Origin: Escherichia coli
GTDB lineage: Bacteria > Pseudomonadota > Gammaproteobacteria > Enterobacterales > Enterobacteriaceae
DNA: 64,000 nucleotides
Assembly: GCF_003334305.1 (NCBI RefSeq)
Contig: NZ_QOWS01000018.1
Strand: one strand, 5' to 3'
Below, in pieces: positions 9,300 through 37,810 of the stretch; the first letter of the stretch is position 1; every line of letters begins with the position of its first letter. Both the position numbers and the translations under genes were made by a program. Below the pieces are notes generated by a model. The model was not told where the DNA came from. It did not search any database and was given only the letters and a program-made list of their open reading frames with translations.

Positions 9300-9512
9300 A
9301 TGTCTAATAAAATGACTGGTTTAGTAAAATGGTTTAACGCAGATAAAGGTTTTGGCTTTATCACTCCTGATGATGGCAGCAAAGACGTTTTCGTCCATTT
9401 CACTGCCATCCAGAGCAATGAATTCCGCACGCTGAACGAAAATCAGAAAGTTGAATTTTCTATTGAGCAGGGGCAACGTGGCCCCGCGGCAGCGAACGTT
9501 GTTACGCTCTAA
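9300..9512 (+). CDS. cspG: Cold-shock protein CspG
   Basis: 70-aa CSD protein ([21 protein letters not shown]...); strong RBS upstream. Confidence 0.9.
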
Positions 9513-10079: not shown

Positions 10080-10126
10080 TTTTGTGAACATCACCCGTGC
10101 GAGGTGATGTTCCGCTTGTTGCTAAT

Positions 10127-11200: not shown

Positions 11201-11271
11201 GATTTTGCCAGTCCGTTAAGTTGCATACCAAATGCCACTATTCTAGTTGTTCTTAACTGGCTGATATTGAT

Positions 11272-14016
11272 TCAAATCGCGTTCAGGTCTTTCTTATTCA
11301 ACCATGCTTCCAGATCGGCAACACTGCGTGTAATTTCTTCGTGTGGAAGGGGGGCAGATAATGGCTGCTGCTCCAGTTGTGCGCATAGCTGGCTGGCGAT
11401 ACGCATTCCCAAACTCGAGCAACTGCTTTTTAGCTGATGCGCGGCACGCTTTATTTTCTCGCTATCCTGACTGGCGCGGGCAATGTCGATTTCATCGAGA
11501 AGCGGCAGGGCATGTTGTGTAAATAATACCAGCCATTCGTGGATCTTCTCCGTCCCCATTAACTGAGCATCTTCATTGAGTTGCGATACATCCAGCGATT
11601 GATCGTTATTGACTTGCAGTTGGAGATAGTGCGCCAGTAACTGACCGAGCACTTCACGCGGCACCGGTTTAGGGATAATCCCGCGGAATAATGAACTGGT
11701 ACGCTGGCGCAGCGTTTCGTCAATGACATGGGCGCTAAAGCCAATCAAAACCAGCGACGGATATTGCTGTGCCAGTTGTCGGGCAAGCGTAATGCCGTCG
11801 ACATCCGGCAGATCAAAATCCACCAGTGCGGCAGCAAACGGTTCGCTATTTTGCAGTGTCTCTAAAGCCTGCGCGGCATTGCCAACAGCAACAACCTGCG
11901 CACCACTGGTGTTCAGCATCTCAACGGTAATTCGCTGGGTTAGCGGGTTATCTTCAATTAACAGCAAACGTAAACCGTCAAGACGCACCGCCTGATTGAC
12001 TGTTTTTGGCACGGGTGCCGTGGCAACACGTAACGGCAAGCGTAAACAAAAACAGCTTCCAACCTCCGGCGTGCTGGTGGCGCTCAGTTCGCCGCCCATC
12101 GCCTGGGCCAGACGGCTACTGATAGTCAGCCCCAGCCCGGTGCCGCCGCGTTTGCCGCTTACCTGCACAAATGGCTGGAAGATTTCTGCCAGTTTCGCGG
12201 GATCAATACCGCAGCCGCTGTCTTCCACTTCGACCAGCCATTGCTCGCCATCAGTGCGACTACGCAGGATAATGTACCCTTCGTCAGTAAAACGCAGGGC
12301 GTTGCTCAACAGGTTGGTTATAACCTGACGAATACGTCGTGGATCGCCCATTAACGCGCACGGCATATCATCGGCAATTGCCGTTGCCAGGCGAATCGGG
12401 CGACCTTTCACCCGTCCGCTCATTAATTGCAGGGTACTTTCCAGCAGCGGGCGCGGTTCAAAGGGCTCATCGCTGACCGAAACATTCTTGCCACCTGCTT
12501 CGATAGCGGAATAATCGAGAATATCGTTGAGGATGGTCAGCAACGATTCACCAGAGTCAGTAATTGCCCGCAAATCATCACGCTGGGCGTTAAGTGCGGG
12601 GTTATCTGCCAGCAGTTGAGCAGTGCCGAGAATACCGTACAGCGGTGTGCGGATCTCATGGCTCATCGCCGCCAGAAACGCCGATTTTGCCTGGCTGGCT
12701 TTTTCTGCTTCCGCCCGTGCCTGTCGGTGTTCTATCACCAGTTCCTGCAATTCAGCTGTACGCGCTTTGACCTGCGCCGCCAGCTGTTCGCGGTGGCGAT
12801 TCAGTGCATGAACATTGCTGCGAAACGCATCCATCAGCCGCCCGATGGTATCCAGCTCCCGTACGCCAGCGGTTTCCGGGAAAGGGGAGTCAATATCACC
12901 GTCCAGCAGCCGTTGCAGCGCCTGCGTTTGTTCGGCAAGTGGACGCGTGACTGAGCGATAAACCACGCGCCAAAGGATCAGAATCAGTGCGCAAAGTGAA
13001 ACCATCCCCAGCAATAACAGGCTGTATTGCCCGCGTGCACTGGCTTTTTCCAGATGCGCCAGTCCGTGCTGATTACGCAGCTCAATGGTGTCGACCAGCT
13101 GACTGACTTCGCTACTAAACTGCGCGAACTGGGCGATGTTATTTTGTGCGAGAGTTTGTAGGTGATTGCTGATTTCACTGTCCTGCTGATACAGCGCCAG
13201 CAAATCGCTATATTGGCTAACGGTAGTTAACGTTGTTGCGACCTGCGCACGAACACCCGGATCTTCAATGCGTATTTGCCGACGTTGCAGAATTTTCACC
13301 GCATTATTGAGCTGCTTTTCCAGCGTTGGTGCATTTTTCTGGATCTGCTCCAGCCCCAGATTCATCACCATTTGCTGCACCCGCAGAGCGCTAAGGCGCA
13401 GTTCATTCATCTGGTTAACATACTCAAGATCGATATCAATCAGCCGATCGAGTGCACTTTCAGCAGCCTGACGCTGATCTTGTTCGATCAAATCGTAAAT
13501 CCCGGCCTGGGTCGCTCCAGCGGAAGTTGTCGCATTATTCGCCTGACCTTGCGCCAGGCGTGCGATCTCATCGGCGGCAGCGACTATCTGCTGACTGAGT
13601 TGCCGTTGTTGCTGGCGTAGTTGCAGACGCCGCCCCACCAGTTCCCCTTGCTGACGTAATGAACGGGAGATCTCCTGCTCCTGTTGTTCAATAGCGGTGG
13701 TATCAAAACCTTGTTCCCGTAACGCTTGCAGCAACGCATTAATCTTCAGGCTTTGTGCGGTGAGCATTCGCCCCTGCGCCTGCCACATCTTTTCGTTATC
13801 GGCACTGGTCAGGTTCTGCGCGGCGAAAAGTTCCCAGGCGCTGGCTTCGCTCAACTGGCGCGCCATATTCATGGTAGGAATCAATGCCTGAGTGTTGTCT
13901 TTTTCCACCTGGCTGATAAAGCGCAGGTTGTACCATCCCACCAGGGTACTGGTCAGGGTTAACAGCGCCATCAGGGCAAAGCCCATCCAGAGTCTTCGGG
14001 TCAGGGTTAAATTCAC
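11272..14016 (-). CDS. torS: TMAO-responsive hybrid sensor kinase TorS
   Basis: 914-aa ORF with histidine kinase (HEIRTPL), receiver and HPt domains. Confidence 0.95.
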
Positions 14017-14098
14017 GGTCGGTGCACTTTAGGTGAAAAAGGTTGAGTCGCAAAGCAGAATGCATCTAGCATAAAGCCTTATTATTGATGAGGCTATC

Positions 14099-15127
14099 AT
14101 GCGCGTACTGCTATTTTTACTTCTTTCCCTTTTCATGTTATCGGCATTTTCGGCTGATAACCTGTTGCGCTGGCATGATGCGCAGCATTACACGGTGCAA
14201 GCCTCTACGCCGCTTAAAGCCAAACGCGCATGGAAACTGTGCGCGCTTTATCCCAGCCTGAAAGATTCATACTGGTTATCGTTGAACTATGGTATGCAGG
14301 AGGCAGCTCGCCGCTATGGTGTGGATTTAAAAGTGCTGGAGGCAGGCGGCTACAGCCAGTTGGCTACCCAGCAAGCACAAATCGACCAGTGTAAACAGTG
14401 GGGCGCAGAGGCCATTTTGCTCGGTAGTAGCACTACGTCATTTCCCGACCTGCAAAAGCAGGTAGCAAATCTGCCGGTGATCGAACTGGTAAATGCTCTT
14501 GATGATCCCCTGGTGAAAAGCCGCGTTGGTGTACCCTGGTTTCAGATGGGCTATCAACCTGGGCGATATTTGGTGCAATGGGCGCACGGTAAACCACTGA
14601 ACGTGCTGTTGATGCCCGGACCCGATAATGCCGGGGGCAGTAAAGAGATGGTCGAGGGTTTTCGCGCAGCCATTGCCGGAAGCCCGGTGCGTATTGTTGA
14701 TATTGCGCTTGGTGATAACGATATTGAAATCCAGCGTAACCTGTTGCAGGAGATGCTGGAACGCCACCCAGAAATCGACGTCGTTGCCGGAACGGCCATT
14801 GCGGCAGAGGCGGCAATGGGTGAAGGGCGTAACCTGAAAACGCCGCTTACCGTGGTGTCGTTTTATCTTTCACATCAGGTGTATCGCGGGCTGAAGCGGG
14901 GAAGAGTGATTATGGCTGCCAGCGATCAAATGGTCTGGCAGGGGGAACTGGCGGTTGAGCAGGCCATCAGGCAATTACAGGGGCAATCGGTGTCTGATAA
15001 TGTCAGCCCACCGATTTTAGTTCTGACGCCGAAAAATGCCGACCGTGAACATATTCGCCGCTCGCTGTCACCAGGGGGATTTCGTCCGGTCTATTTTTAT
15101 CAGCACACATCAGCGGCTAAGAAATAA
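14099..15127 (+). CDS. torT: Periplasmic TMAO-binding protein TorT
   Basis: 342-aa periplasmic binding-protein fold with signal peptide; synteny. Confidence 0.9.
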   Translation: MRVLLFLLLSLFMLSAFSADNLLRWHDAQHYTVQASTPLKAKRAWKLCALYPSLKDSYWLSLNYGMQEAARRYGVDLKVLEAGGYSQLATQQAQIDQCKQWGAEAILLGSSTTSFPDLQKQVANLPVIELVNALDDPLVKSRVGVPWFQMGYQPGRYLVQWAHGKPLNVLLMPGPDNAGGSKEMVEGFRAAIAGSPVRIVDIALGDNDIEIQRNLLQEMLERHPEIDVVAGTAIAAEAAMGEGRNLKTPLTVVSFYLSHQVYRGLKRGRVIMAASDQMVWQGELAVEQAIRQLQGQSVSDNVSPPILVLTPKNADREHIRRSLSPGGFRPVYFYQHTSAAKK

Positions 15128-24893: not shown

Positions 24894-25499
24894 TTAGCCG
24901 TTAAGTTTAACTGCCAGACCTGCGACATATTCCCCTTGATAACGAGCAATAGACAGTTCTTCCTGGCTTGGCTGGCGTGAGCCGTCACCGCCTGCGATGG
25001 TTGTTGCGCCGTACGGCGTACCGCCGCGAACCTGTGAAACGTCAAATAATTCCTGCGCTGCGTAGCCAATGGGGACAATTACCATGCCGTGATGCGCAAG
25101 GGTCGTCCAGGTTGAAGTAATAGTTTGTTCCTGACCGCCGCCAGTACCGGTGGAACTAAAGACGCTCGCCAGTTTTCCGTATAGTGCGCCGGAAGCCCAC
25201 AGGCCGCCCGTCTGGTCGAGGAAGGTACGCATTTGACCGGACATGTTGCCAAAGCGGGTAGGTGTACCAAAAATAATGGCGTCGTAATCGGCCAGTTCTT
25301 GCGGGGTTGCAACCGGTGCAGTTTGCGTTTTACCGCCTGCTTTTTCAAATAATTGCGGCGGCATGGTTTCCGGTACACGCTTAACGACAACTTCTGCGCC
25401 ATCCACTTTGCTTGCACCCTCAGCGACTGCGCGTGCCATCGTTTCAATATGTCCGTACATGGAATAATAAAGCACTAGTATTCTTGCCTTAACACTCAT
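24894..25499 (-). CDS. wrbA: NAD(P)H:quinone oxidoreductase WrbA with an element-encoded N-terminus ([12 protein letters not shown] in place of the recalled K-12 MAKVLVLYY)
   Basis: 201-aa flavodoxin-like ORF; the first codons and the RBS (aggaga) lie in the inserted element, the rest is host wrbA. Confidence 0.9.
25469..25475. other. attL core candidate (AAAGCAC), left copy of the junction direct repeat
   Basis: Host wrbA sequence ends and element sequence begins right after this heptamer. Confidence 0.55.
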
Positions 25500-25550
25500 A
25501 TCATTGTTCTCCTGTTCAATGAACCACTTAGATAAGCATAGTCCGAAGAT

Positions 25551-27194
25551 ATGAAGCTGCTAGTGACATACATCAGGTGGAGTACTAAAGAGCAAGACTC
25601 AGGAGACTCCTTAAGACGACAAACAAACCTCATTGATGCTTTCTACTCTAAGCACAAAAACGATTATTACCTTCTTCCTGCTCACAGATACGTTGATAAG
25701 GGTAAATCTGGTTTTCACCAGCAACATAAGAATCAAGGTTCTGACTTCAGACGTATGTTTGAAAATGTTATGTCTGGGGCTATTCCAGAAGGTTCCCTGA
25801 TTGTTGTAGAGAACTTTGACCGCTTCAGTAGGGCTGATATCGACACAGCTATAGATGATGTCAGGCAGATACTGAGGAAGGGAGTCTCTATACTGACTCT
25901 GGGAGATGGTGAACTCTACGACAAGTCAGCATTAACAGACCCTGTGAAGCTGATTAAGCACATCATCATAGCTGAGCGAGCACATCAGGAATCTCTTGTT
26001 AAACAAAAGCGTATAGCTCAGGTCTGGAACCATAAAACACAGCTTGCAAGAGAACTTAAGAAGCCTATGGGTAAGCAAGCCCCCGGATGGTTAGAGCTAT
26101 CAGAAGACGGTTCACACTACATCGTTGATGAAGATAAAGCGTCACTGGTGAATATCATCTATGACAAGCGTCTTTCTGGTATGTCGATGTTTGCTATCTG
26201 CAAATGGCTAAACGAACAAGGTTACCCGACCATTAATCAGCGTAAGGTCAGAATATCCAAGACTAAGAAACCGGATGGTAACTGGTCAGCTTTAAGCGTT
26301 AAACACATCCTGACTTCACGAAGTGTATTAGGTTACCTTCCCGCTAAGATTTCTACAGAAGACCGTAAAACAGTGTTACGTGAAGAAATTGAAGGGTTCT
26401 ATCCTCAGATTGTCACAGATTCTAAGTTTTACGCTGTACAGCAACTGTTAGAGGAAACAGGGAAGGGGAAAACATCCAGCGGTGACCACTGGTTATACGT
26501 GAACATACTGAAGGGGCTTATCCGTTGTAAGTGTGGGCTTGTAATGACTCCTACAGGGATACGTAAACCCGTTTATCAAGGTACTTACCGTTGCAATGGT
26601 AATAAGGAGTCCCGTTGTAGCTACGGTACAGTGTCCAGAAAGTTACTTGATACACAGCTTTGTAGTCGTCTGTTTAGCAAACTGTCACAGCTACACGATG
26701 AAGCTACCGATACAGCTAAATTAGATGAACTACAAAGAAGATTAAACACCGTTGATGGTGAACTGGAAAAACTCACTGAGACGCTGATACAGCTTCCTAA
26801 CATCACTCAGATTCAAGAAGCACTACGGGTTAAACAGGAAGAAAAAGATGAACTGATAGTTCAGTTATCACGAGAAAAGGCGAGGGTAAAATCTGTATCA
26901 AGCTTGGATTTAAGCGGTCTTGATATGGAGTCTGTAGAGGGGAGAACTGAAGCCCAGATTATCATTAAGCGTCTGGTGAAAGAGATTGTTGTTTCTGGTA
27001 ATGAAAAGCTGGTGGATATATATCTTCACAATGGAAATATGATTCGTGGTTTCCCTCTTGATGGTAAAGATGACCACACCTTAACGCTTGAAGAAGCAAC
27101 CGATGAGATGCAGTCACTAGATGATATGCTTATTTTTGGTGAACCAGTAACAAGGATTTATCCTGCTGGTGATATGGAAGAGGTGGACGCTTAG
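25551..27194 (+). CDS. Large serine recombinase (integrase candidate)
   Basis: 547 aa; N-terminal resolvase-type catalytic motif YIRWSTKEQ (catalytic Ser), Cys-rich zinc-ribbon region (CKCG...CNGNKESRC) and coiled-coil segment typical of large serine recombinases; gene abuts the junction. Confidence 0.85.
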
Positions 27195-27979
27195 TATTTT
27201 TTATTAGGGTTCACTGAGTACTTTTTAAGCTTTGAAGCTACTCGACCAGCGTTACTATTAGCATTGGTGACGTTGGTTTTTTCAGCTTCTGTTAAGTCTG
27301 AATAGTCCAGCTTCCAAGCCTTATTACACTTAATCTGAGCATCGAGAATATCATTTCTGATAGCTGGAGCGTAACCGGATACATCGCTAATACTCATTAG
27401 CTCTTTGCACGATAGCATAGGCGCGTTATTGCGTTCAGTGGTCACGTTACCTGCATTCTTCTTACTGGTCACACCACCATCATTCGTAGTCGCGGCTTTT
27501 CCAGTTGCAGCCGAGATATCAGTCTGCCCCACAACAGCTTTGAAGTTAATTTCCTGAAAAGTTAGTTGGATTCTTAATCCGTTTGAAATTCCAACATCTT
27601 TAGAGGCTTTAAAACTTGTGATAATGGAATCATCAATTTTAATTCCGTCTTTACAGATGACAGAAATAATCTGCTTCTGGTCACGCCAGTTTTCCAGAGT
27701 GTCAATGAAGTTCTCTACTAATTGACCCTGACGAGTTAATAGTAAGCTTCCTTCATAACCAACTACAACGACACCACTGATAGTGATTGTTCTGGGTGCT
27801 CTTTGAACATTATCTGTGACGGTTTGCCCTGATTGCATGTTCTGTGTAGTCACCTGCATAGGGCTATCAAATTCCATATTTTCAGTTGCTGATAAGGTTA
27901 AGAAGGCATCTACATTATCTCTTAAGTGGAAGTAAACGCCATCTTTGCCACTGTAGCGGATTTGATTGCTAAAAATCAT
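27191..27979 (-). CDS. Hypothetical protein, possibly distal-tail (Dit)-like phage tail component
   Basis: Follows the tape-measure-like gene in the canonical order; start taken at the second Met (MIFSNQ), which has an AAGGAG RBS; homology not verified. Confidence 0.35.
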
Positions 27980-28059
27980 TAAATTCTCCTTTGATTTCAA
28001 AGGCTTAGTGTATTTTAATCATTTTTAACCAAGCCTTTGATATATAAGTATTTTCTCTG

Positions 28060-28128
28060 TTAAGCGTGAGCTACGTAAATTCTATTTTTCAGTGCGGGTA
28101 TTAACTTTGCTTTATTCACGTAGAACAC
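28060..28128. repeat. Direct repeat copy A (69 bp, internal dyad GCTACGT...ACGTAGC) upstream of the Dit-like gene
   Basis: ttaagcgtgagctacgtaaattctatttttcagtgcgggtattaac... about 88 percent identical to copy B. Confidence 0.75.
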
Positions 28129-28135
28129 CGTTAAA

Positions 28136-30304
28136 TCAATCATCTTCTGGGAATGATGAACTTAATAACGTAGCTTCTGCATATTGGTCGTAGATATTAC
28201 TGCTAAAGGTCATAAAGCTGGTTTCATCTGGTTTAATGGCAACTTCACCACCAAGTGAAACTTTCACAGGCTCCTGAATACGCTTACTTAAAGCAGAGAT
28301 TTCATCCCTCAGACCCTGAATATCTGCACTCGTTAATGCTGAATCTTGCTTAATGTTGTTTAATTCTGGATGATTGAATCTTGCAATATTCATTGTGGCA
28401 TTGTTAAACAATTCACCCATTGAACTAAAAATTCTACTCCATCCTTCGTTAATCACATTCGGTTTATTAGGGTCACCAGAATACACAGGATTAAAGTCAC
28501 TACCCACACCTACCCCAGATGGATGCATATTAGCGTTTTTGACTACTTCCTGATTCATAAAATCCAGTGCTTTCTTCAATGCATATAAACCAAGAGTGAC
28601 ACCTCTGATTTGTGGAATCATTGAAGCTAATGCTAACGCTGTTTCATAACCGTCATCAGCATAACCAATTGCAAGAGCACTACCTACACCACCAGCTACA
28701 CCTTTCAGTTTTCCACCACCTTTACCAGTAGCTACCTGACCAGCCACCTGATTAGCTCTTGTACCTAACGTTGTGATTGCTCTTGTCAGGTTCATAACCC
28801 CTGTAGTAGCACTGAATAGTGTCTTTGCAGATAACGCTATAGCAAGACCTTTGACGAAGTTGATAAATCCATCACCGACTTCATCAAGTAGCTTTCGCTT
28901 AGTGTCATCAAGGCTGTAATAGGTCTTCTTAATCTGTAGAATCCAGCCTTCAAGGTGATTGTTAAAGATACGGATGTCATCTACACCAGCTTTAAGCATG
29001 TCGATAAGTCCACCGATAGCATCACCAGCGATAGAAGAACTCATACCCATTTCACTAAGCAGGTTACTCAGGCTGGATAAGAAGCCATTTAGCTCATCCT
29101 GTGAACCTGAGAAGATTTTCACCATCGTATCATCCCAGTTGTTAGCCAGTTTCCCTAAAGCTGTCTGAGTGCTCTTAGCGACTTCAGCCCAGCCACCCGC
29201 TTTATCAATCATCAAGCCCATCTGTTTAGCGACTTTAGGGAGAGTATCACTACTTAAAATCTTCCCGTCTTTCATCGCTTTATCAAGCTCTGTAGCAGTC
29301 ATACCCAGTGCTTCAGCGAATAGCTTAAATGCACCAGCCATACGGTCACCTAACTGACCACGAAGCTCTTCAGCCTGAATCTTGCCCTTGCTCGCCATCT
29401 GCTCAAATGCTTTCAAAATGCCGTTTAGCTCATCGTTAGAAAGCCCCATTAAGCGACTCATAGCCGTTGCATTACCAAATAGCTCCTGTGTCTGTTCCTG
29501 TGACATAGAACCCTGAGCACCTGCTGCAAACTTAGCGTAGCTTGATAGCCCTTCAGAGATATTAAGACCTGTCTTGTCTGCTAAATTTCGAATAAATACC
29601 TCAGCTTCAGATGCTTTATCACCAAGTACAAACTTAGCGGCTCTCTGTGCGGAATCTCGTTTAAGACCTGCATTCATGATGGCCTTGTAAGCGTTAAGAG
29701 CACCCATCACAGAGTAAAATGCACCAGATAACTTGATTGCATTGCTTGCAAGATTATTAAATGCGTCGCTTGTATTGTTAATGCTGGTGGATGTATGACC
29801 TTTAGCTTTAGCAATTGCTTCTCTGACTGAAGCATTTAACTGAGTCAGCTTCTCATTGAATTTTGAAGAATCCATTGACCCAGCTTTAGCAGATAGCCCG
29901 TAAAACTGAGATTTGATGTATTTCTGCAAAATAGGGTCAAAGCCTTTTAGCTTAGACATATTAGCTGAGTAAGCCGCTGTGATTGCTCTGTTGCCGCTAA
30001 TTCGTGGCTGTCTTGGTTGTCTAAGTGGCTTTAAAGTGTCATCAATTTCCGTTTTAATCTTAAACGCTCTAGTGTTTTTAAGACGCTGCTCAATCTTGGA
30101 AACAGTTTTATCGACATTCTTTTCCATTAGTTTGAGAGAATCATTTAAAGGCGTAGGGTTAACTCTGAATGCCTTATTTAGTCGTTTCTCAATTCTTGAT
30201 GCGATTTGCATCGTTTGTTTCTCGGCTTTTTCCAAGCCTTTTAAAACTTTCTGAGAGCTAAAACTTAGCTCAATCAAAAAATCATCAACTTTAAATTGTG
30301 CCAT
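28136..30304 (-). CDS. Tape-measure-like protein (phage tail length tape measure family candidate)
   Basis: 722 aa; coiled-coil N-terminus, central region resembling the tape-measure core (...AEELRGQLGDRMAGAFKLFAEALGMTATELDKAMKDG...), Gly-rich hydrophobic segments. Confidence 0.55.
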   Translation of the reverse strand: MAQFKVDDFLIELSFSSQKVLKGLEKAEKQTMQIASRIEKRLNKAFRVNPTPLNDSLKLMEKNVDKTVSKIEQRLKNTRAFKIKTEIDDTLKPLRQPRQPRISGNRAITAAYSANMSKLKGFDPILQKYIKSQFYGLSAKAGSMDSSKFNEKLTQLNASVREAIAKAKGHTSTSINNTSDAFNNLASNAIKLSGAFYSVMGALNAYKAIMNAGLKRDSAQRAAKFVLGDKASEAEVFIRNLADKTGLNISEGLSSYAKFAAGAQGSMSQEQTQELFGNATAMSRLMGLSNDELNGILKAFEQMASKGKIQAEELRGQLGDRMAGAFKLFAEALGMTATELDKAMKDGKILSSDTLPKVAKQMGLMIDKAGGWAEVAKSTQTALGKLANNWDDTMVKIFSGSQDELNGFLSSLSNLLSEMGMSSSIAGDAIGGLIDMLKAGVDDIRIFNNHLEGWILQIKKTYYSLDDTKRKLLDEVGDGFINFVKGLAIALSAKTLFSATTGVMNLTRAITTLGTRANQVAGQVATGKGGGKLKGVAGGVGSALAIGYADDGYETALALASMIPQIRGVTLGLYALKKALDFMNQEVVKNANMHPSGVGVGSDFNPVYSGDPNKPNVINEGWSRIFSSMGELFNNATMNIARFNHPELNNIKQDSALTSADIQGLRDEISALSKRIQEPVKVSLGGEVAIKPDETSFMTFSSNIYDQYAEATLLSSSFPEDD

Positions 30305-30322
30305 TGTTCATATTTCACCTCT

Positions 30323-30390
30323 TTAAGCGTGAGCTACGTAAATTCTATTTTTCAGTGTGGGTATTAGCTTTACAGATTTCACGTAGCACA
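30323..30390. repeat. Direct repeat copy B upstream of the tape-measure-like gene
   Basis: ttaagcgtgagctacgtaaattctatttttcagtgtgggtattagc...cacgtagcacac. Confidence 0.75.
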
Positions 30391-30505
30391 CATAGGATTC
30401 GATAGAAGACTATCTCATATACAAAAAAGGAGAGTTACCGATGTCACTCGATAATCTCTCCCGTAGATTTTTACCCAACCAATTCTATTAGAAGCTAATC
30501 TCAAA

Positions 30506-30721
30506 TTAATGGTAAACGTAAGAATACATCCCATCATCACCTAAAATCTGTGCGTCACATGGTAATTTATCTAAGCACCATGAAGGAATCTTACGTACCT
30601 TTGGTTTATGTGAGGTGATAACTTGATGCTGATTTTTAATTCGTAGCTTTGGTTTAGTCTGAAGCTTTAAGTTCTCACAAACAGACTTAATAAGTTCATA
30701 GCGTTCTGTTAAATCAATCAT
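30506..30721 (-). CDS. Hypothetical small basic protein
   Basis: 71-aa ORF co-oriented with neighbouring element genes; no recognisable motif. Confidence 0.4.
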   Translation of the reverse strand: MIDLTERYELIKSVCENLKLQTKPKLRIKNQHQVITSHKPKVRKIPSWCLDKLPCDAQILGDDGMYSYVYH

Positions 30722-30744
30722 TCACCACCTCTTTTAATTCATAG

Positions 30745-31455
30745 TTAAAGTGCCTTGCTATATTTCTGAGAAATCTTCACTAACTGCTCAATATCAGCCT
30801 GCATAGCAATCTTCTTCTGCGTTTCATATGCAGAAATAAGCTCTTTCATAGCCTGAAGCTCTCTTGAGAGATACAACTTAACATTTTCAAGTTGCTTGTT
30901 ACGTGATGCCAAGATGTTCTGTCTGGCAAGTTCAGCGAGTTCTTCATCGCTCTTATTAGTCGTGTAAATAAACTGACCAGCACCCCTTGAAGCTTTAACC
31001 ATCTTCACAATTCGATATCCAGCAGGAAGACTACTAATCACGGCTGCGACGTTTTCTTGAAAAGTACCAAAACCATCATTGTCTTCGTATGTGAAGTAAA
31101 CATACGGCTTCTGTGACAATTCATCCTGAATCTCAAATTCTGACGGCTCAATAGCTGATTGCATCAGGGTAACTTTACTGTAAGCATCATCTAGTTTAAT
31201 ACGCTGTGCTTTTAGCAGTGGGTAATATTCACGCTCAAGCTCAAGTAATGCTTCAGTTTTGCATACATCAGGCATCTCTTGAGGCTCAGGAGACACAAAG
31301 ATGATTTCCTTTGGTGACATTCGGATTTCTTGCTCAAGCTTAATTCTTTCATCGTGTTCTTTACGCTGAATAGCGATAGCTGGATGTTCAGTCTGTGGCG
31401 ACCAGTCACCGAAGCTATCAATCACTTTGCCATTAATGTAAATATCATTTGTCAT
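30745..31455 (-). CDS. Hypothetical protein with C-terminal coiled coil
   Basis: 236-aa ORF with a good RBS (aagagga); no recognisable domain. Confidence 0.5.
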   Translation of the reverse strand: MTNDIYINGKVIDSFGDWSPQTEHPAIAIQRKEHDERIKLEQEIRMSPKEIIFVSPEPQEMPDVCKTEALLELEREYYPLLKAQRIKLDDAYSKVTLMQSAIEPSEFEIQDELSQKPYVYFTYEDNDGFGTFQENVAAVISSLPAGYRIVKMVKASRGAGQFIYTTNKSDEELAELARQNILASRNKQLENVKLYLSRELQAMKELISAYETQKKIAMQADIEQLVKISQKYSKAL

Positions 31456-31933
31456 TGTTTTTTCCTCTTCTAAGCTAAAGTATTTCAGTTTTTAAAAAGC
31501 ACACCTGACAGCCTATCTAAACTTAGAAGAGACTTAAAAGGCGGTTTGCCAAGTATGCTTTTTAAAAGCTGAAAAAGCCCTAGATAACTAAAACGCTATA
31601 AAGGGCTAAGGTGAAGAAATTAAAACATCTAAAGGATTCAATAACGAATGAACAAAGACTTTTCGAGATAGCCTCTCAGGTTGTATAAGAGGCCATGTAG
31701 CGAAAAGCATTGCACCTTTCAGAATGTTCGGTATAGAACATACCTCACCAACTCAGAATATCCATCCATCGGATTATTGAAATAAATAAGAGAGAAATTC
31801 TCTCTATAATTAAAATTATGTCATGCTTAAGGTTATTTGTCAACAGCTTTTTAACAGATTGGTAACATTTATACTTTAATAGATGCACCTGCAATCATAC
31901 CAATCAACACAAAACAGAGAATCACCAATTCCA

Positions 31934-32257
31934 TTAATGCACCACCTTCGAATCCGTAACCAGAATATTATCGCTGTACAAAATTGCTATAGCCGCCTTG
32001 AGATATTTTTCAGGGCTAACGCTGTATTTGTTCGTTTGCTCGACAACCAATCTTTTCATGTTGCTGTCTTTAATTGGTAGCATCATTCGAGGCTCGTTAA
32101 ACTCCACCGACTGAATAAAGTCAGAGATGCTTTCCGCATTATCAGTCATTAACTCTAACAACTTATCAAAGTCAATGCTAACACCTACATCAGTGAAAGC
32201 CTGAATCATCATGGCGGTGTCGGTATCAATAAAAATCTGTAATTCGTAATTGTTCAT
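31934..32257 (-). CDS. Hypothetical acidic protein
   Basis: Start taken at the ATG (MNNYELQIF) preceded by AAGGAG; the track ORF begins at an upstream TTG. Confidence 0.45.
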   Translation of the reverse strand: MNNYELQIFIDTDTAMMIQAFTDVGVSIDFDKLLELMTDNAESISDFIQSVEFNEPRMMLPIKDSNMKRLVVEQTNKYSVSPEKYLKAAIAILYSDNILVTDSKVVH

Positions 32258-32412
32258 TTTTAAAATCTCCTTTTTACCAGACCTCCTCAATCGCTCTGTA
32301 ACGAGCTAAACAGTCTTTTTCAGGGGTAGCCTGTACAGTGGTATTACCCACCCTAAAATAAGATAGTTTTTTGCGTCAGAATGCGATTGAGAGCGTCTGA
32401 GAAGCTGTTTTT

Positions 32413-32700
32413 CTAATTTCTCTTAAAGTCTCGGACTTGCATAAGATTTTTTGGTCTGGTATCGGCTCTGTTACCATTTCGATGGATAATTTGCTTGTTG
32501 GATTGATAGCCATGATAAAGAAACCAGACAACATATTTCACGTAGAAAGTATATCGGCCTATATTAAATGTTTTGTTGCCGTAGTCGTCGGTGTTTATCG
32601 TGACTGACTCTCCATCAGACCAGCACAGGGAATCACTGGATTCATCATAGATAAGGTGTTCTGCAAAATATCTTCTAACATCTTCATTCCAAGGTTTCAT
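32413..32700 (-). CDS. HNH endonuclease-like protein
   Basis: 95 aa; C-terminal IIHRNGNRADTRPKNL resembles the HNH core (I-H-x-N/D-G-N-x-x-D-N-R-x-x-N-L) of phage HNH nucleases. Confidence 0.5.
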   Translation of the reverse strand: MKPWNEDVRRYFAEHLIYDESSDSLCWSDGESVTINTDDYGNKTFNIGRYTFYVKYVVWFLYHGYQSNKQIIHRNGNRADTRPKNLMQVRDFKRN

Positions 32701-32912
32701 AAAACCTCCTCACCCCAATAACCTAATTCAATCTTGTGACGCTCAAACCATTCCGGTTTAACTGCTGTTTTCAGTACTTCATTTGGGCCAATGGCTTTAA
32801 TGAAAATATCTTTTGAGTTATGGATGTCACCGAATCCGTTTCCTTCAATCAGGAGGTCGGAGATGTAGCGAATCATTTTATCCGTGTGGTATTCAAAGGT
32901 AACGCATAGCAT
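32697..32912 (-). CDS. Hypothetical protein
   Basis: 71-aa ORF with start/stop overlap to both neighbours (operon-like coupling). Confidence 0.4.
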   Translation of the reverse strand: MLCVTFEYHTDKMIRYISDLLIEGNGFGDIHNSKDIFIKAIGPNEVLKTAVKPEWFERHKIELGYWGEEVL

Positions 32913-33193
32913 TAAACCTCCAGAGACAGCTTGTGAATCTTAAGACTCAATAGACGGGCAATATCAATTTTAAAGCCGTTAAGTCCCTTCAAAGTATCTA
33001 AAGCGTCCTGAGTAATTCGGATGTGTTTACGACCTTTAGAGACTGGATATTTAAGTAAATCCGACTCAGTAACCTCTTTAGCAATTGCAAGCTGCATAAC
33101 AGTCTGATGAGGTAAGTTAGTAGCTCGTTTAATTCTGGCAAGCTCGTTAAAAGCTTCCTCTGAAATGCGGGTTAAAGTGTGTTTGTTTTTCAT
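32912..33193 (-). CDS. Putative ribbon-helix-helix DNA-binding protein
   Basis: N-terminal HTLTRISEEAFNELARIKRATNL pattern (beta-strand then helix) typical of Arc/MetJ/CopG-type regulators. Confidence 0.4.
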   Translation of the reverse strand: MKNKHTLTRISEEAFNELARIKRATNLPHQTVMQLAIAKEVTESDLLKYPVSKGRKHIRITQDALDTLKGLNGFKIDIARLLSLKIHKLSLEV

Positions 33194-33194
33194 T

Positions 33195-33749
33195 TTAAAA
33201 TTCCTCTGTAACTAAATACGGGTCAAATTCAAAGTCTGGTTCACTGGTTGTAAGGCTGATATTTCCAACTTCCGCATGATGATTAATTGTCTCAATAACT
33301 TTCATGCAAATAGTGGCTAAGTTAGCGCAATATTTATCACTTGGTAATTCGTAGCTAAGTCTGGTTGCTTGTCTTTGAAGATGGCTCGTCACTGTGCTTG
33401 AACTAATCTCATCAAGACTTCGCAGTAAATAAAAAACCTTCCGGTGATAATTATCTCTTCCAAGACTGCGACAAGTACCGATAATTACATCTTCAATTCG
33501 TGGCGGTAATTGCTCGTAAGAATCAAAGCCCATCAAGAAAGTTTTTAAAGTATTCTCTTTTTCTTTGCGTGCTGGCATAAATCTGTCTCGTGGCGTAATG
33601 CTACGAATGACCGCTTCAATGTTCTTACGTTCGGATTTGCTAAAGGTTGGGACTTCGTAGCTGGTGGGGGTGTCTGTGTGGCTGTAACCGTTGTGTCTGT
33701 TGCGTTCTCTTGATGCCTGAAGCATCGCTCTAAATTCTCTGTCGTTCAT
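33195..33749 (-). CDS. Hypothetical protein (first gene of the leftward operon)
   Basis: 184-aa ORF with no recognisable domain. Confidence 0.45.
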   Translation of the reverse strand: MNDREFRAMLQASRERNRHNGYSHTDTPTSYEVPTFSKSERKNIEAVIRSITPRDRFMPARKEKENTLKTFLMGFDSYEQLPPRIEDVIIGTCRSLGRDNYHRKVFYLLRSLDEISSSTVTSHLQRQATRLSYELPSDKYCANLATICMKVIETINHHAEVGNISLTTSEPDFEFDPYLVTEEF

Positions 33750-33850
33750 TCATAAGCTAGTCCTTATAATTGTTAATTCTCTGTTAACTTATATATACAA
33801 TACTAGCATTTTCAAAGACTAATGTCAAGCATTTTTTAACATTTCATTAA

Positions 33851-33866
33851 CATCTGTGGTATAATG
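33851..33866 (+). promoter_or_regulatory. Candidate extended -10 promoter (TGgTATAAT), rightward
   Basis: ctgTGgTATAATgg in the divergent region between the 184-aa gene and the small membrane ORF. Confidence 0.45.
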
Positions 33867-33992
33867 GTTCTATGGGGAGAGTAAAATATAAAGGCGTGGC
33901 TATGAGGTTTATTCGATAGGGGTTGGTACAAGCCCAACCAACCGAATCAACTATGTATGTCACATGGTATTGCATTGCACACAGGAAATTTA

Positions 33993-34169
33993 ATGGTAAA
34001 TCTCCCTCCTGAACTGGGGTCACCTGATGTATGGGCTGGTGGAGGTATCGGGCTGATTGCAGGTCTGTTACTCCGCTACGTCCTTGTCAGAGTGCTTGTT
34101 GTGTTCCGATTGTTCGGTCGTACATGGACGCTTGACCTTAAGGATAATGAGCACACAGAACCCCGTTAA
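33993..34169 (+). CDS. Small single-pass membrane protein (58 aa from the RBS-preceded ATG)
   Basis: Hydrophobic stretch GGGIGLIAGLLLRYVLVRVLVVF; AGGAAA RBS before the MVNLPPEL start. Confidence 0.35.
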   Translation: MVNLPPELGSPDVWAGGGIGLIAGLLLRYVLVRVLVVFRLFGRTWTLDLKDNEHTEPR

Positions 34170-34211
34170 GCTCCCTTCAAATCCCCCTGTACGAGATGGC
34201 ATAGGGGTGTC

Positions 34212-34250
34212 TTTAGCATTTTGTGCTATCTATTAAAAAATAACTTGACA
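34212..34250. promoter_or_regulatory. Operator-like dyad TAGCA-N5-TGCTA followed by ACTTGACA (module 1)
   Basis: tttagcattttgtgcta ... acttgacagaa. Confidence 0.45.
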
Positions 34251-34289
34251 GAACCGGAAAGCTGTATCTATCAGGTATTCACCTCTCTG

Positions 34290-34460
34290 ACAGTAACTTC
34301 TAAAAGTTCTTATTTTTCAATGAGTTGTAATCACCCATATATAGAGAACTGACAAGTCTCTTCACAATTAACTCTGTAACCTTAACAGTGATTTCTAAAA
34401 ATGCTTATTTTTCAATAAGTTGTAATTAGCCATATATAGAGAACTGACAAGTCTCTTCAC
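34290..34460. repeat. Two tandem copies of a 76-bp direct repeat (period 95 bp) in ORF-free DNA
   Basis: acagtaacttctaaaagttcttatttttcaatgagttgtaatcacccatatatagagaactgacaagtctcttcac versus the second copy, about 88 percent identical. Confidence 0.8.
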
Positions 34461-34777
34461 GGAGAACTTCCTGGACTCACTAAGATACAAGGCGATAACC
34501 CCAGAAAGGGAGAGCCACCTTCTAATTGGTATTGTTATGAGGATGCTTCATCCGAATCATCTACCAATCCCTAAACCGACTTCTTAAACAATCTTTACAG
34601 ACCCCGTTCACCAGTCTCAATATTTTTATTTCTCGCTCTTCGTTTGTTGCTCGTTTCTATTATTGAGGGGGTTTGAAAAACCTCTGTAAAATAACCCTTC
34701 CAGTAAAAAGCGAATAACCCCAGAGAGGGGGAATCGCCTCTTTAACATTCTCATAATCAGTGCTCTATATGAGAATT

Positions 34778-35446
34778 TCAGCCCAACCTTTGAACAATCT
34801 TGTAAGTGGTGCTTAGAGGCATTCTTAGCGATTCTGCGATGCTCTTGACGGATTGCCCTTGGCCATGCAGTTTAATCAGCCTGTCAAGCGTCTGTGCATC
34901 GTGTATATGAGGTCTTCCACGTAAACCACCCCTGTTAACCACGGCAAGTAAAAGCATTGTGTCGCCACAATAGATTGTTTGTGTAACTTCAACCTTCGGT
35001 TTACGGGGTGTGTTCCTGTATATCAAAACGCAACTTGCAAACGGTGAACGCACTACAACACCTTTCTTCCCTGCTGGTGGAAGGTATTTGACTGCTCGGT
35101 GTAACGTTCGAATCTCATGCAGAAAGGGGTTTGTATATACACACCGAAGCCAGTAAGTTGTCTTTGACCTGTGCGGAACCAGACATACACACACATCAGC
35201 TTCATGGGATTTTAGGAGGAACCTTTCAGCCATGCTAAACGGCGGGTTAACGAAGACCCGTTCACCAACCCATGATTGATTGTGAATATCATCGGTGAAC
35301 CGTGGCAACAATGCGTCATGCTCAGTTGCAGCACCATCCATCGAAAAACCAAATTCACGGTGTAGGTTACGAAATAAACGATACGGTGTACGCCAGTCAT
35401 CAGAACCACCATGATAACGACCGACATTGATTATTGGATGTGACAC
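34778..35446 (-). CDS. Dam-family (phage-type) DNA N6-adenine methyltransferase with a C-terminal HTH extension; GTG start
   Basis: N-terminal DWRTP and catalytic NPPF motifs of the phage Dam family; C-terminal about 45 aa (GRPHIHDAQTLDRLIKLHGQGQSVKSIAESLRMPLSTTYKIVQRLG) resemble the GRP-linker plus HTH of resolvase/invertase proteins. Confidence 0.7.
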   Translation of the reverse strand: MSHPIINVGRYHGGSDDWRTPYRLFRNLHREFGFSMDGAATEHDALLPRFTDDIHNQSWVGERVFVNPPFSMAERFLLKSHEADVCVCLVPHRSKTTYWLRCVYTNPFLHEIRTLHRAVKYLPPAGKKGVVVRSPFASCVLIYRNTPRKPKVEVTQTIYCGDTMLLLAVVNRGGLRGRPHIHDAQTLDRLIKLHGQGQSVKSIAESLRMPLSTTYKIVQRLG

Positions 35447-35485
35447 AAGCGAAGCGCCCCTCTTAGTATATTTCTTAATCGTCTC

Positions 35486-35546
35486 TTTAGCATTTAGTGC
35501 TTTTTGTTAAGTTTAGCACTTTTTGCTAAAGACAAAACACTTGACA
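35486..35546. promoter_or_regulatory. Operator-like dyads (TTTAGCA-N6-TGCTAAA and a second half-degenerate copy) followed by ACTTGACA (module 2), upstream of the methyltransferase gene
   Basis: tttagcatttagtgct and tttagcactttttgctaaa, then acttgacaaaa. Confidence 0.5.
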
Positions 35547-36020
35547 AAATGGTAAGATTGTTCACATGACCTTACTTAACAGATTCTTAAGAGCTTTGAA
35601 ACGAACTGTTTAACAAGGTCACTACCTCTGGTCTTATCGTTCCCTCTCTTCTTGGTAGTTCTGTTAAGTATCTTTTCAGGTATCTCTTACAGTCACTGTT
35701 AAGATAGAACCTACCTTCGGTTTCATGGTTCTCTTCCTCCCGTTAAATATCCCTTCACAGTCAGACTAAATAACACCTCTGTAGTTTCTTGGTAGAATCT
35801 TTCAAGGTAACTTAACTCTGAGTTTATGAAGTTGACCTTAGTCAATGTTTGTGAAGGTGTTACAGAGCATGTTCTCTAGGTCTGTGTAGCTCACTAAGCG
35901 AGAGAGGGGATATGTGACCATAGGGGAACCCCTCCTGTTAAAAGTTTCTTGATGTTATCATCACAATATGTATAATCACCAACTGTACAGACACCTTAAC
36001 GGTTTCTCTACACCTCACTA

Positions 36021-36089
36021 TGGCTAGGTAGGGTATGGTTTAGCTTGGTACGGCTAGGTTAGGTCTGGTTTGGTTAGGTATGGGTGGAT
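36021..36089. repeat. Degenerate G/T-rich short tandem repeat (GGYTAGGT-like units)
   Basis: tggctaggtagggtatggtttagcttggtacggctaggttaggtctggtttggttaggtatgggtgg. Confidence 0.6.
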
Positions 36090-36120
36090 TGTCGTAGCCA
36101 CGTTAAAAATCGACTTATAG

Positions 36121-36145
36121 GGACTCTTTCGGGAGTCCTTTTTAG
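36121..36145 (+). terminator. Intrinsic terminator, plus orientation, with no upstream plus-strand ORF
   Basis: ggactc-tttcgg-gagtcc stem-loop followed by ttttt. Confidence 0.6.
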
Positions 36146-36347
36146 TTTGTATAAAATCTGTACAGGAGTTATCAGGCTTCTAAAATTTTTATAAAAAATA
36201 ATCAGACCTCTTCTAAGCCTCTTCAACCAAATCTTTCGAAAATATCTGACAGATGTCTGTAGCTGCTAAGTACCCGTCACACCAGCTATGTGACCCCCTT
36301 GGCAAAAAAGCCAAATATCAGCTACATCCATGTAACTATTCAGTAAC

Positions 36348-36899
36348 TTATTTAGCAAGTCTGTAATAAGTTGCTCTAGAGATTCCTAACTCTTCCTGAA
36401 TCTGCAACCTCGTCTTACCTTGTGAAATAAGCGTCTGTACAGCCTCTGAAGAAGCCTTTACAGGCCTCCCCATATGTACCCCTTCAGCTTTAGCACGTTC
36501 AATACCAGCCTTTCTACGCTCTGCTATCAAGCTTCTTTCAAGCTGTGCCAACGTTGACATAATGCCTAACATTGCTTCACCCATAGCGCTTGATAAGTCA
36601 AACCCTTCTCTAAGGCTGATAACTGTCACACCTTTAGCCTGTAGCGCTTTAACCGTTGATAACACATCAATTGTGTCACGTCCAAGACGGTCTACAGCTA
36701 CCACAACTACGGTGTCACCTTCTCGTGCATAAGCTAACAAACTACTGAAACCGTTTCTTAAAGAAGCTTTGACAGAACCACTGACAGCTTCATCAGTGAA
36801 CCATTTAGCAATGTTGTACCCTGCCTCTTCAATTTGCATTTGCTGGTTAGTGATGGATTGGTCATCTGTACTCACCCTGCAATATCCAAGTATCGCCAT
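36348..36899 (-). CDS. Small serine recombinase (resolvase/DNA-invertase family)
   Basis: 183 aa; N-terminal catalytic motif GYCRVSTDDQ, resolvase core, C-terminal GRP linker plus HTH. Confidence 0.85.
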   Translation of the reverse strand: MAILGYCRVSTDDQSITNQQMQIEEAGYNIAKWFTDEAVSGSVKASLRNGFSSLLAYAREGDTVVVVAVDRLGRDTIDVLSTVKALQAKGVTVISLREGFDLSSAMGEAMLGIMSTLAQLERSLIAERRKAGIERAKAEGVHMGRPVKASSEAVQTLISQGKTRLQIQEELGISRATYYRLAK

Positions 36900-36912
36900 A
36901 CATCCCCCTTAG

Positions 36913-37040
36913 AAGTCTCAAAAGTTAGTCTCATAAGTTTAGCTGTCTCATAATCCAAAAACAACCTTTTGAGACTACTTGAGGGTGCATTCTACCGTTA
37001 CGTTGAAAGTGTCTCAAAAGGAAGTCCTTTTAAGACTGGT
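36913..37040. promoter_or_regulatory. Iteron-like array of GTCTCAWAAG motifs (at least four direct, two inverted) immediately upstream of the small recombinase gene
   Basis: gtctcaaaag, gtctcataag, gtctcataat, inverted ttttgagact, gtctcaaaag, taagact within about 125 bp. Confidence 0.6.
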
Positions 37041-37416
37041 TATGAAGGAGCTATGAAGATTTTAGGAGGGTAACTATAACCATCACTTTCTAACTTTCAC
37101 GTAGGAAATCGTTAAGTTTCTTGATAGTTACACCATGTGACCAACTATCTATATATCGTTATATAGCCCTGTATATAACACTTTTCTAGGAGTCGAGAGA
37201 GGGACGACTAACACGATACAGTTTACCCTGAAAAGAGACTTCACAGATTCTCTATATATTTCAATAAGTTAGGCTAAAAAGAGACTATACCGATACTGTA
37301 TAGAATCTGTGTAGAATTGCTTAGATACTTGGAAAAATGCCTTTAAATTGAATAGGTACTAACCTGTTTATGTCCTGTTATTAACAGGTAGTTGAATGTA
37401 CGTGTTTAGCTATGTA

Positions 37417-37438
37417 AAAGCACCAGAACTTTAGCCAT
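37417..37438 (-). other. attR core candidate (AAAGCAC) plus the displaced native wrbA start codon and first five codons
   Basis: Minus strand reads ATG GCT AAA GTT CTG GTG C..., the recalled native wrbA 5' end, now separated from the gene body by the element. Confidence 0.6.
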
Positions 37439-37810
37439 TTCTAACCACTCCTCGTGTTATCTCTATTCCGTAGCGATTCGCTACCACTTATTTAAAGATA
37501 AGACGTCCTTTTCAGAGTGCAAATTTCACAACCACTTATTTGATTTATAACAACTTTCACAAGCACGTAATTTTGTCGCAAAATGACACATTTTTATCTC
37601 ATCGCGTTTTTTTAATCATAAGAGCGGCTTATGGATAATTATTGGAGATGATATCTATTCTCGCTAAGAAGCTGTTGCAGGATATTACCAAACGCGGGTC
37701 TGCCCGCGTCAGTTCACTAAGCTTAGTCCCACGTAGCGAAAATATGGCAGCCGCCATACGCCGCGTTAATTCTATGCAATATGATGTCTATACCCAGACG
37801 GAGGTCAGTA

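Follow-up and report, generated by a model that had tools for sequence, protein, structure and literature searches.

A large serine recombinase element in the 5′ end of Escherichia coli wrbA supplies the gene with a new start codon and N-terminal codons

Several integrative elements are known to enter a conserved housekeeping gene at its 5′ end and to give that gene a new in-frame N-terminus. The dusA-specific IMEVchUSA3 integrates at the 5′ end of its target, provides an in-frame new N-terminus and, as shown by a lacZ fusion, a new promoter (bioRxiv 10.1101/2021.06.18.448947), and a passage of the same report cites SXT as behaving in this way at prfC. These islands use a tyrosine recombinase with a recombination directionality factor (RDF; RdfN or Xis) and are mobilized by conjugation, and the N-terminus that they exchange comprises ∼35 residues, at 61% identity. 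The large serine integrases of phages (PhiC31, Bxb1, A118/LI, SPbeta, and TP901-1) instead act on short attachment (att) sites beside the integrase gene, with a nonpalindromic 2-bp crossover and no duplication. These classical enzymes usually disrupt their target, as with comK, sigK, spsM, and groEL1. Here, we describe an element of ∼12 kb in the 5′ end of wrbA on contig NZ_QOWS01000018.1 of an Escherichia coli assembly (GCF_003334305.1), analyzed within a stretch of 64,000 nucleotides (nt; the window, to whose positions all coordinates refer). We consider it very probable that the element was inserted by conservative site-specific recombination through its own 547-aa large serine recombinase (LSR), with in-frame restoration of wrbA, and that it is a conserved, currently mobile island that most likely interacts with FelixO1-like phages. 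It resembles the dusA islands and SXT in that its target is likewise a conserved housekeeping gene, entered at the 5′ end, and in the element-given in-frame N-terminus. In contrast to them, it carries an LSR, exchanges eight codons for five, and has the native start codon of its target inside an attB half-site. Since its recombinase belongs to another family than that of the DusA/SXT clade, the element works like the dusA/SXT islands but is not a member of that group.

The two ends of the element are marked by a 7-bp identity, AAAGCAC, at positions 25469 to 25475 and 37417 to 37423, 11,948 bp apart core to core, and these sites are the attL and attR junctions of the integrated element. The element body extends from 25476 to 37421 (11,948 bp crossover to crossover), with the recombinase gene on the plus strand and all others on the minus strand. 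At attL, the wrbA reading frame runs through the junction to give a rebuilt coding sequence of 201 aa (24894 to 25499, minus strand), which is evident from the open reading frame (ORF) translation, is annotated in RefSeq as WP_000111568.1, and matches the NCBIfam WrbA equivalog with 353 bits. Its codons 1 to 8 (25476 to 25499, minus strand), ATG AGT GTT AAG GCA AGA ATA CTA, encode MSVKARIL in place of the native MAKVL; they belong to the element and were identical in all five genome copies compared. The swap of five native codons for eight from the element adds a net 3 aa. As read from the sequence, the element also contributes a Shine-Dalgarno (SD) motif, AGGAGA (25508 to 25513, minus strand), which precedes the new ATG by 8 nt, and the divergent start codons of wrbA and the recombinase gene are separated by 51 bp (25500 to 25550), the recombinase ORF beginning at 25551. 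At the other end, to the right of the attR core, the host DNA reads as ATGGCTAAAGTTCTGGTGC in reverse complement; the native wrbA start codon occupies 37436 to 37438 and its AGGAG 37448 to 37452. This orphaned start now opens merely a 10-codon ORF, MAKVLVLLHS*, that runs into the right end of the element (37406 to 37438, minus strand; read from the sequence). An initial annotation of this DNA had proposed that wrbA stays intact, that the element provides its ribosome-binding site and start codon, that the native start is orphaned, and that 51 bp lie between the divergent starts, and each of these points agrees with what we found, the spacing to the base. The same annotation was right that the element supplies N-terminal codons, but it counted six of them where there are eight.

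Removal of positions 25476 to 37423 in silico yielded a continuous wrbA that encodes the canonical protein (MAKVLVLYY, 198 aa), and of 5,426 complete E. coli genomes, 5,127 contained the reconstituted 407-bp attB without interruption, so that the comparison with an unoccupied locus proposed in the initial annotation came out in favor of its reading. In the same genome set, the 400-bp attL junction was present in 73 genomes and the attR junction in 74. The element has a 100% match in E. coli A7 (NZ_CP028767.1), and other genomes contain related copies of 11 to 13 kb. Across five copies, the junctions were base identical and the backbones differed by 6 to 12%, with element-side conservation extending for more than 100 bp at attL and ∼45 bp at attR before the copies diverged. 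Identical junctions in copies whose backbones differ to this degree argue for repeated independent integrations, and the varied hosts and serotypes of the carriers indicate that the same site was hit repeatedly. Relatives of the backbone occur in ∼550 of the 5,426 genomes, and the wrbA-type recombinase and the chimeric WrbA are also found in Shigella and Salmonella records.

The junction would have to be read otherwise if MSVKARIL were a native 5′ end of wrbA in some strain, and we found no such case. At least 1,000 contigs encode the exact 201-aa protein, and at each of the 10 independent places examined, it stood beside the recombinase gene, 51 bp from it. Because the 201-aa protein always adjoins the recombinase, MSVKARIL is never the native end of wrbA. 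An insertion sequence (IS) interrupts the recombinase gene at two of these places and would leave the element fixed where it is. One further copy, in strain DCE7, has a WrbA of the same length under a different protein accession.

Evidence for the excised form came from metagenomes. The predicted attP joint, GTTTAGCTATGTAAAAGCACTAGTATTCTTGCCT, had no match in IMG/VR; the exact 34-nt joint is present in three metagenome contigs. One of these, ERZ506742 NODE-633, is an 11,233-bp contig that holds a whole related element closed at the predicted joint, and the 55-bp overlap of its termini makes it a circular assembly of 11,178 bp. Its recombinase region is 98% identical to that of the element studied here and the remainder 69 to 92%, and no wrbA or ymdF DNA was found on it. 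The arm that encodes MSVKARIL travels with this excised circle, without wrbA, and the circle keeps one AAAGCAC between its ends. Excision of such elements is real in nature. Another contig bearing the attP joint, OOBX01000469.1, measures 23,009 bp, about twice the unit length, with the joint seen within 6 kb; it could be a head-to-tail dimer or concatemer.

The recombinase gene (25551 to 27194, plus strand) encodes a protein of 547 aa with YIRWSTKEQ near its N-terminus, and matches in Pfam, in PHROG, and with the PhiC31 structure identify it as an LSR. It has the catalytic resolvase-type domain (Resolvase, PF00239, residues 5 to 155, E = 1.8e-10), followed by C-terminal recombinase and zinc-ribbon domains (Recombinase, PF07508, residues 194 to 302, E = 8e-19; Zn_ribbon_recom, PF13408, residues 319 to 368, E = 5e-4), and it matches the PHROG 95 integrase at 5e-78. 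By the translation, Ser11 falls within YIRWSTKEQ, and we take it to be the nucleophile from the family pattern Y-x-R-x-S-x-x-x-Q. The nearest solved relative is the PhiC31 integrase, with whose coiled-coil region the segment after the ribbon aligns, and the closest phage-borne LSR in the phage collection shares at most 29% identity. The attP site lies directly upstream of the LSR gene, its AC being 75 bp before the LSR ATG. The element thus shares with the phage large serine integrases the domains, the apparently short att site beside the integrase gene, and a 2-bp nonpalindromic crossover with conservative exchange and no duplication. It differs from them in its very distant sequence (phmmer E = 2e-9 to PhiC31) and in that the target gene is rebuilt. 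In our literature search, we found no relevant publication on a serine recombinase at wrbA; a prior listing in the LSR catalogue of Durrant et al. is possible.

Comparison of the half-sites, all given here on the plus strand, placed the left attB half-site B in host wrbA codons ∼8 to 18 (25444 to 25473, containing ACATGGAATAA) and the right attB half-site B′ over the native wrbA start and SD (37424 to 37453, with the motif AAATGGCTAAAGTTCTG toward the crossover). The right attP half-site P′ (25476 to 25505), identical in a copy located in yegS, doubles as the coding sequence for the wrbA N-terminus, and the left attP half-site P (37392 to 37421) forms the right end of the element, where ∼45 bp are conserved among the copies. 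Toward the crossover, B reads ...GTACATGGAATAATAAAGC, B′ ...AGAAATGGCTAAAGTTCTG, the left arm at yegS ...CTTAATGGCAAAAGTACTG, and P′ ...TGTTAAGGCAAGAATACTA. Of 16 positions compared, 14 are identical between the yegS left arm and wrbA B′; A(A/C)ATGG(C/A)(A/T)AA at −16 to −7 is common to this arm, B, and B′; and the ATGG of B′ is that of the native wrbA start codon. Between the P′ and B′ arms, 14 of 30 positions are identical. From these comparisons, attB is predicted to be a pseudo-dyad of ∼40 bp centered on the AC in wrbA codon 6 (GTG).

The position of the crossover emerged from strain DCE7 (NZ_CP090611.1), which carries a full element at wrbA plus a second copy in the 5′ end of yegS (locus 2380 to 13800), between codons 17 and 18. 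The recombinase of the yegS copy is 99.1% identical, and its P and P′ arms are identical to those of A7. Its junctions read ...AATGGCAAAAGTACTG-AC-TAGTATTC... and ...TATGTAAAAGC-AC-AATCTACCC..., and the host sides rejoin to the native N-G-K-S-T-D-N-L-P with nothing gained or lost. Since AC is all that the yegS site and attP have in common, the crossover is at positions 6 and 7 of the core (25474 to 25475 at attL and 37422 to 37423 at attR). AC accordingly bears the mark of the central dinucleotide of a serine integrase, and the other five bases, AAAGC, reflect similarity of the half-sites. A dyad-symmetry scan of attB and attP at every center was too weak to place the crossover, and it was the yegS site that settled it. 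The 7-bp core named in the initial annotation is therefore present at both junctions, but it is not the crossover site as such.

These junctions also bear on an origin of the AAAGCAC repeat as a target-site duplication made by a DDE-type transposase. Such a duplication would equally leave one AAAGCAC in the empty site and two in the occupied one, and RefSeq names an element protein of 236 aa "transposase." We nevertheless regard this origin as extremely improbable. The same base position was used in 73 to 74 genomes, the excised circle keeps one AAAGCAC, and a complete LSR is encoded 75 bp from the joint. For the "transposase," Pfam gave no domain, as for a 184-aa element protein, and NCBIfam and PHROG gave no support. 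The yegS copy, finally, lacks a 7-bp duplication, having only AC in common and no host base gained or lost, and its junctions rule out a target-site duplication.

Taken together, these data suggest the following course of events. Strand exchange by the LSR at AC would place the body of wrbA beside the P′ arm, and this arm would bring AGGAGA, ATG, and the eight in-frame codons for MSVKARIL. WrbA would survive as a protein of 201 aa whose structured part is native except for K3R and V4I, and the native promoter, SD, and start would be left 12 kb away at attR, opening the 10-codon ORF toward the element. Several points weigh against this account. The assignment of AC comes from one secondary site, and the dyad symmetry around AC is modest (11 of 22 positions in attP and 7 of 22 in attB). 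The metagenome circle shows excision somewhere in nature, not the activity of the copy in strain A7. No RDF was recognized among the small ORFs of the element by PHROG and other profile scans; as excised circles exist, some factor, of the element or of a phage, must act. Lastly, neither a consensus scan nor a relaxed custom scan gave a sigma-70 promoter upstream of the rebuilt wrbA start, so the rebuilt ORF could be intact yet poorly expressed.

The last of these points leads to the question of whether the restoration is formal only. The rebuilt wrbA might be silent or inactive without its sigma-S-dependent native promoter, and the new N-terminus might simply follow from the resemblance of the attP and attB half-sites, or from an ancient imprecise excision in which the 5′ end of a foreign wrbA was picked up, without having been selected as a means of rescuing the gene. 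The missing sigma-70 promoter speaks for this, and the 14-of-30 identity of P′ and B′ could itself be required for half-site recognition by the recombinase. Disruption of a target also appears to be tolerated, as the same LSR broke yegS and a sister LSR broke yecE, and wrbA is listed among prophage-disrupted genes by Bobay et al. (PMC3603311). We consider a merely formal restoration rather unlikely, however. Mere preservation of the frame would not need a consensus SD, ideally spaced, together with an ATG and the conservative A-R-I-L for A-K-V-L; by annotation, the 201-aa protein is identical in five genome copies, besides its exact recurrence on the many contigs noted above; a sigma-S-like C-TATGCT lies upstream of the rebuilt start; and for the dusA islands, an element-supplied promoter has been proven by experiment.

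Residues 5 to 201 of the chimera align to residues 2 to 198 of the solved WrbA structure 2r96 with K3R and V4I as the only differences, and GCA AGA ATA CTA, as contributed by the element, imitates the native GCT AAA GTT CTG. The 201-aa WrbA is also the sequence of the UniRef100 cluster represented by the Swiss-Prot entry NQOR_SHISS (Shigella sonnei). We infer that the chimeric WrbA is active and expressed.

The other targets of this element family are not rebuilt. At the second site in DCE7, yegS is broken: reading into the P′ arm meets a TAG at once, and the P arm contributes ATG-TAA; RefSeq calls a truncated yegS of 279 aa from an internal start in DCE7. Sister elements in YD786 and CE0026f have the same backbone with a 507-aa serine recombinase (34% identical) and lie in the middle of yecE (locus ∼1930 to 14560), another classical Stx-phage site; there, yecE is annotated as two pseudogene pieces, with no restoration. 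Among wrbA, yegS, and yecE, gene restoration thus appears specific to wrbA. Selection for WrbA function, half-site requirements of the recombinase, and a past acquisition of the 5′ end of a foreign wrbA could each account for it.

We also considered how the rebuilt gene might be transcribed. The C-TATGCT motif (25535 to 25541, minus strand), a consensus match from a custom scan, is a weak candidate for a sigma-S-like −10 element and ends 35 nt before the rebuilt ATG. The suggestion of the initial annotation that the element supplies or controls wrbA expression found no support in these scans and stands as a hypothesis. Alternatively, transcripts might arise by read-through of the long minus-strand operon of the element, which would run antisense through the recombinase gene. 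A terminator-like hairpin stands in that path at 26492 to 26476, a single match and no more than was obtained with shuffled controls. The native wrbA promoter, together with the SD and start, is 12 kb away at attR and points into the element. The 8-mer TAAGTGGT is present upstream of the start codon that the element gives to wrbA (∼25520 to 25528, minus strand) and, by eye, at two places in the sequence preceding the native start (right of 37453), a recurrence that may be due to chance or to a shared regulatory site.

A second possibility for the origin of the locus is that the element is a remnant of a wrbA-integrating lambdoid prophage of the Stx type (933W or Sp5-like) and that its junction is the known att site. 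The gene is a classical site of Stx phages, for whose wrbA prophages a 7-bp att sequence has been reported (bioRxiv 10.1101/2024.03.06.583675), and in ∼220 genomes, wrbA is interrupted in some other way. Stx and lambdoid wrbA prophages thus resemble the element in their use of the same gene, of its 5′ end, and of a short att core. In contrast to the element, they carry a tyrosine integrase plus an excisionase, and their site is ∼25 bp further into the gene. This is the case in the wrbA prophage of 94_0962 (NZ_CP074791.1), where identity to wrbA resumes at TTGAAACGATGG and a 192-aa ORF, MINHILSHVETMARAV..., is left without beta-1 and the YYSMYGH loop. The start of this ORF (MINHILSHV...) overlaps the integrase stop by 4 bp, and RefSeq calls it wrbA (locus 2626 to 4511). 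Since it lacks the first beta-strand and residues of the FMN-phosphate loop, wrbA is effectively disrupted by the tyrosine-integrase prophage, which fits the listing of the gene as prophage disrupted (PMC3603311). The element has neither a tyrosine integrase nor lambdoid genes, and its size is steady at 11 to 13 kb across diverged copies. Derivation from a lambdoid prophage is, on this evidence, hardly credible.

The ∼12 genes of the element are arranged in a conserved order: the recombinase gene on the plus strand and, on the minus strand, genes for a Dit-like protein, a tape measure protein, a 71-aa ORF, and the 236-aa ORF, then a variable module, an N6-adenine methyltransferase gene, and a small serine recombinase gene. 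Only the tape measure and Dit-like genes are recognizably viral, and both point to FelixO1-like phages, which are strictly virulent and have no prophage state. The Dit-like gene (27191 to 27979, minus strand; Pfam Dit_like) encodes a mosaic distal tail or baseplate protein that is ∼73% identical in amino acid sequence to the product of the gene directly after the tape measure gene in FelixO1-like phages (more than 250 phage records). Its nucleotide sequence is 93% identical over 518 bp to that of Felixounavirus HMD-P10. Within the protein, residues 31 to 180 are identical to those of the phage at 147 of 150 positions, and the C-terminal ∼85 aa at ∼35%. The tape measure gene (28136 to 30304, minus strand; 722 aa) stands in the same order as in the FelixO1-like phages, whose protein has 742 aa and ∼30% identity, and the phage counterpart of window positions 27191 to 30304 (minus strand) is PV469800.1 5588 to 8613.

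The resemblance extends to noncoding DNA. At 36023 to 36117 (plus strand), a GGT-periodic tract is joined to GTAGCCACGTTAAAAATCGAC, and this composite recurs three to four times in the intergenic spacers of the leftward early region of the phage, at best with 89% identity over 53 nt; Rfam gave no match for the tract and none at E ≤ 0.1 for the whole element. Four further noncoding stretches (34479 to 34537, 35610 to 35648, 36158 to 36196, and 37144 to 37175) match, at 80 to 85% identity, a 1.6-kb gene-free region of the phage (PV469800.1 65023 to 66680), and they could mimic an origin, a packaging signal, or a promoter.

With two recognizable virion genes only, no capsid, terminase, or lysis genes among its proteins, and an LSR that is split by IS elements in some genomes, the element could be viewed as a degraded, immobile prophage fragment whose junctions are fossils. 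This is improbable. Gene order and the size of 11 to 13 kb are kept in dozens of copies that differ by 6 to 12%, a circular 11.2-kb form exists, one genome has two copies with one of them at a secondary site, and the virion genes resemble those of phages that are strictly virulent.

The element is thus a small island that lacks a full virion and lysis gene set and has a molecular link to a FelixO1-like phage in the N-terminal domain of its Dit-like protein, its gene order, and its intergenic matches, features that it shares with satellites. These matches suggest that the island may be a satellite or an anti-phage (tail-assembly decoy) island interacting with FelixO1-like virulent phages. In searches with PHROG, NCBIfam, Pfam, and PADLOC, the other element proteins matched no phage, defense-system, or satellite-marker family, and PADLOC reported an orphan methyltransferase only. 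The same resources gave no P4 psu, sid, or delta, no PICI alpA or pri-rep, no cfPICI marker, and no PLE repA, nixI, or capR; SatelliteFinder models were not run. The IMG/VR loci that carry the 236-aa marker have contig identifiers whose format resembles isolate-genome numbers, and they therefore provide no virome evidence of packaging. MT836130.1, a 12.7-kb fecal "Bacteriophage sp." with a 27%-identical LSR, was considered as a packaged relative and rejected, since it has nothing else in common with the element. Our literature search found no paper on satellites of FelixO1 or Felixounavirus, or on an element of this kind.

The closest described parallels in lifestyle are the PLEs of Vibrio cholerae and the PICMIs of Vibrionaceae, which are likewise small chromosomal islands and which respond to virulent phages. 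PLEs have been reported from V. cholerae only. As McKitterick and Seed are said to have found in 2018, the PLE large serine recombinase takes its RDF from the helper phage ICP1, whose genome is ∼126 kb. The ratio of element to phage is about 1:7 in both cases, with 12 kb to 87 kb here and ∼18 kb to ∼126 kb for PLE. PICMIs are packaged as concatemers (PMC10803314); the 23-kb attP contig described above is about two element units long. Unlike the PLE and PICMI families, the element has tape measure and mosaic Dit tail genes. We tentatively propose, as a possibility that ranks well below the integration reading, that these elements form an undescribed, widespread family of ∼11 to 12 kb that would act as PLE/PICMI-like satellites or as tail-poisoning defense islands against FelixO1-like myoviruses. 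Its members would combine swappable LSRs (for wrbA, yecE, and secondary sites) with a tape measure protein, a phage-like Dit N-terminal domain, and phage intergenic signals, and their excision would perhaps depend on the phage, as that of PLE does on ICP1 PexA. The wrbA-type attP might then have evolved to rebuild wrbA for cost-free carriage, with the stationary-phase wrbA promoter of the host reading into the island.

Integration at a 5′ end with provision of a new N-terminus is already known from the dusA islands and from SXT at prfC, and the junction is in this sense an ordinary kind of event; the FelixO1-matched tail module is the more unusual lead. Were the FelixO1 link functional, a common satellite or defense island against this group of virulent phages would exist in E. 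coli, Shigella, and Salmonella. FelixO1-like phages are widely used for typing and biocontrol. The junction nonetheless offers a clean case of a serine integrase whose attP repairs the gene that it cuts, which has been documented experimentally so far for tyrosine-recombinase elements. It also gives a defined natural attP/attB pair, a crossover dinucleotide, and one pseudo-site for an uncharacterized E. coli LSR, which can be taken straight into biochemical assays and might serve as an integration tool. For annotation, the 201-aa WrbA, including the NQOR_SHISS cluster, is an element-host chimera that databases treat as native. By the same token, wrbA should not be scored as disrupted when this element is the occupant; the tyrosine-integrase prophages 25 bp away, in contrast, do effectively disrupt the gene.

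Some smaller features of the element were also noted. An extended −10-like consensus match, TGGAATAAT, is formed by the host B arm at 25460 to 25468, 82 nt before the recombinase ATG, in the integrated state only. The circular attP does not have it, and expression of the recombinase could thus differ between the integrated and circular states. A perfect palindrome, CCTGTTATTAACAGG, lies at 37374 to 37388, ∼30 bp inside the right end and at the edge of the conserved stretch. Without a T-run, it is not an evident terminator, and a protein might bind there. Within 34290 to 34460, there are two 76-nt direct repeats, 91% identical and spaced by 95 bp. The motif AAGAGACTT(G/C)(T/A)CAG(T/A)TCTCTATATAT occurs twice on the minus strand at 34.3 to 34.45 kb and once on the plus strand at 37233 to 37259 (region 37223 to 37302); the 64-kb window has no other occurrence, and the phage has one. 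The repeats and the recurring motif are candidate iterons or operators. A role of TCTCTATATAT as a general phage promoter was rejected, as it has one occurrence in the phage genome. The variable module of other copies contains an HTH_36 protein, which by its domain is possibly a replication initiator.

The small serine recombinase (183 aa; 36348 to 36899, minus strand) lies in a cassette with a 20-nt inverted repeat on either side (36331 to 36350 and 37113 to 37132). Other copies have in this cassette (36331 to 37132) a 191-aa recombinase, 42% identical, in the opposite orientation, with collinear flanks. A simple invertible switch was rejected for this region because the copies in the opposite orientation hold a different cassette, as their 42% amino acid identity indicates, and the arrangement is best described as a probable swappable cassette.

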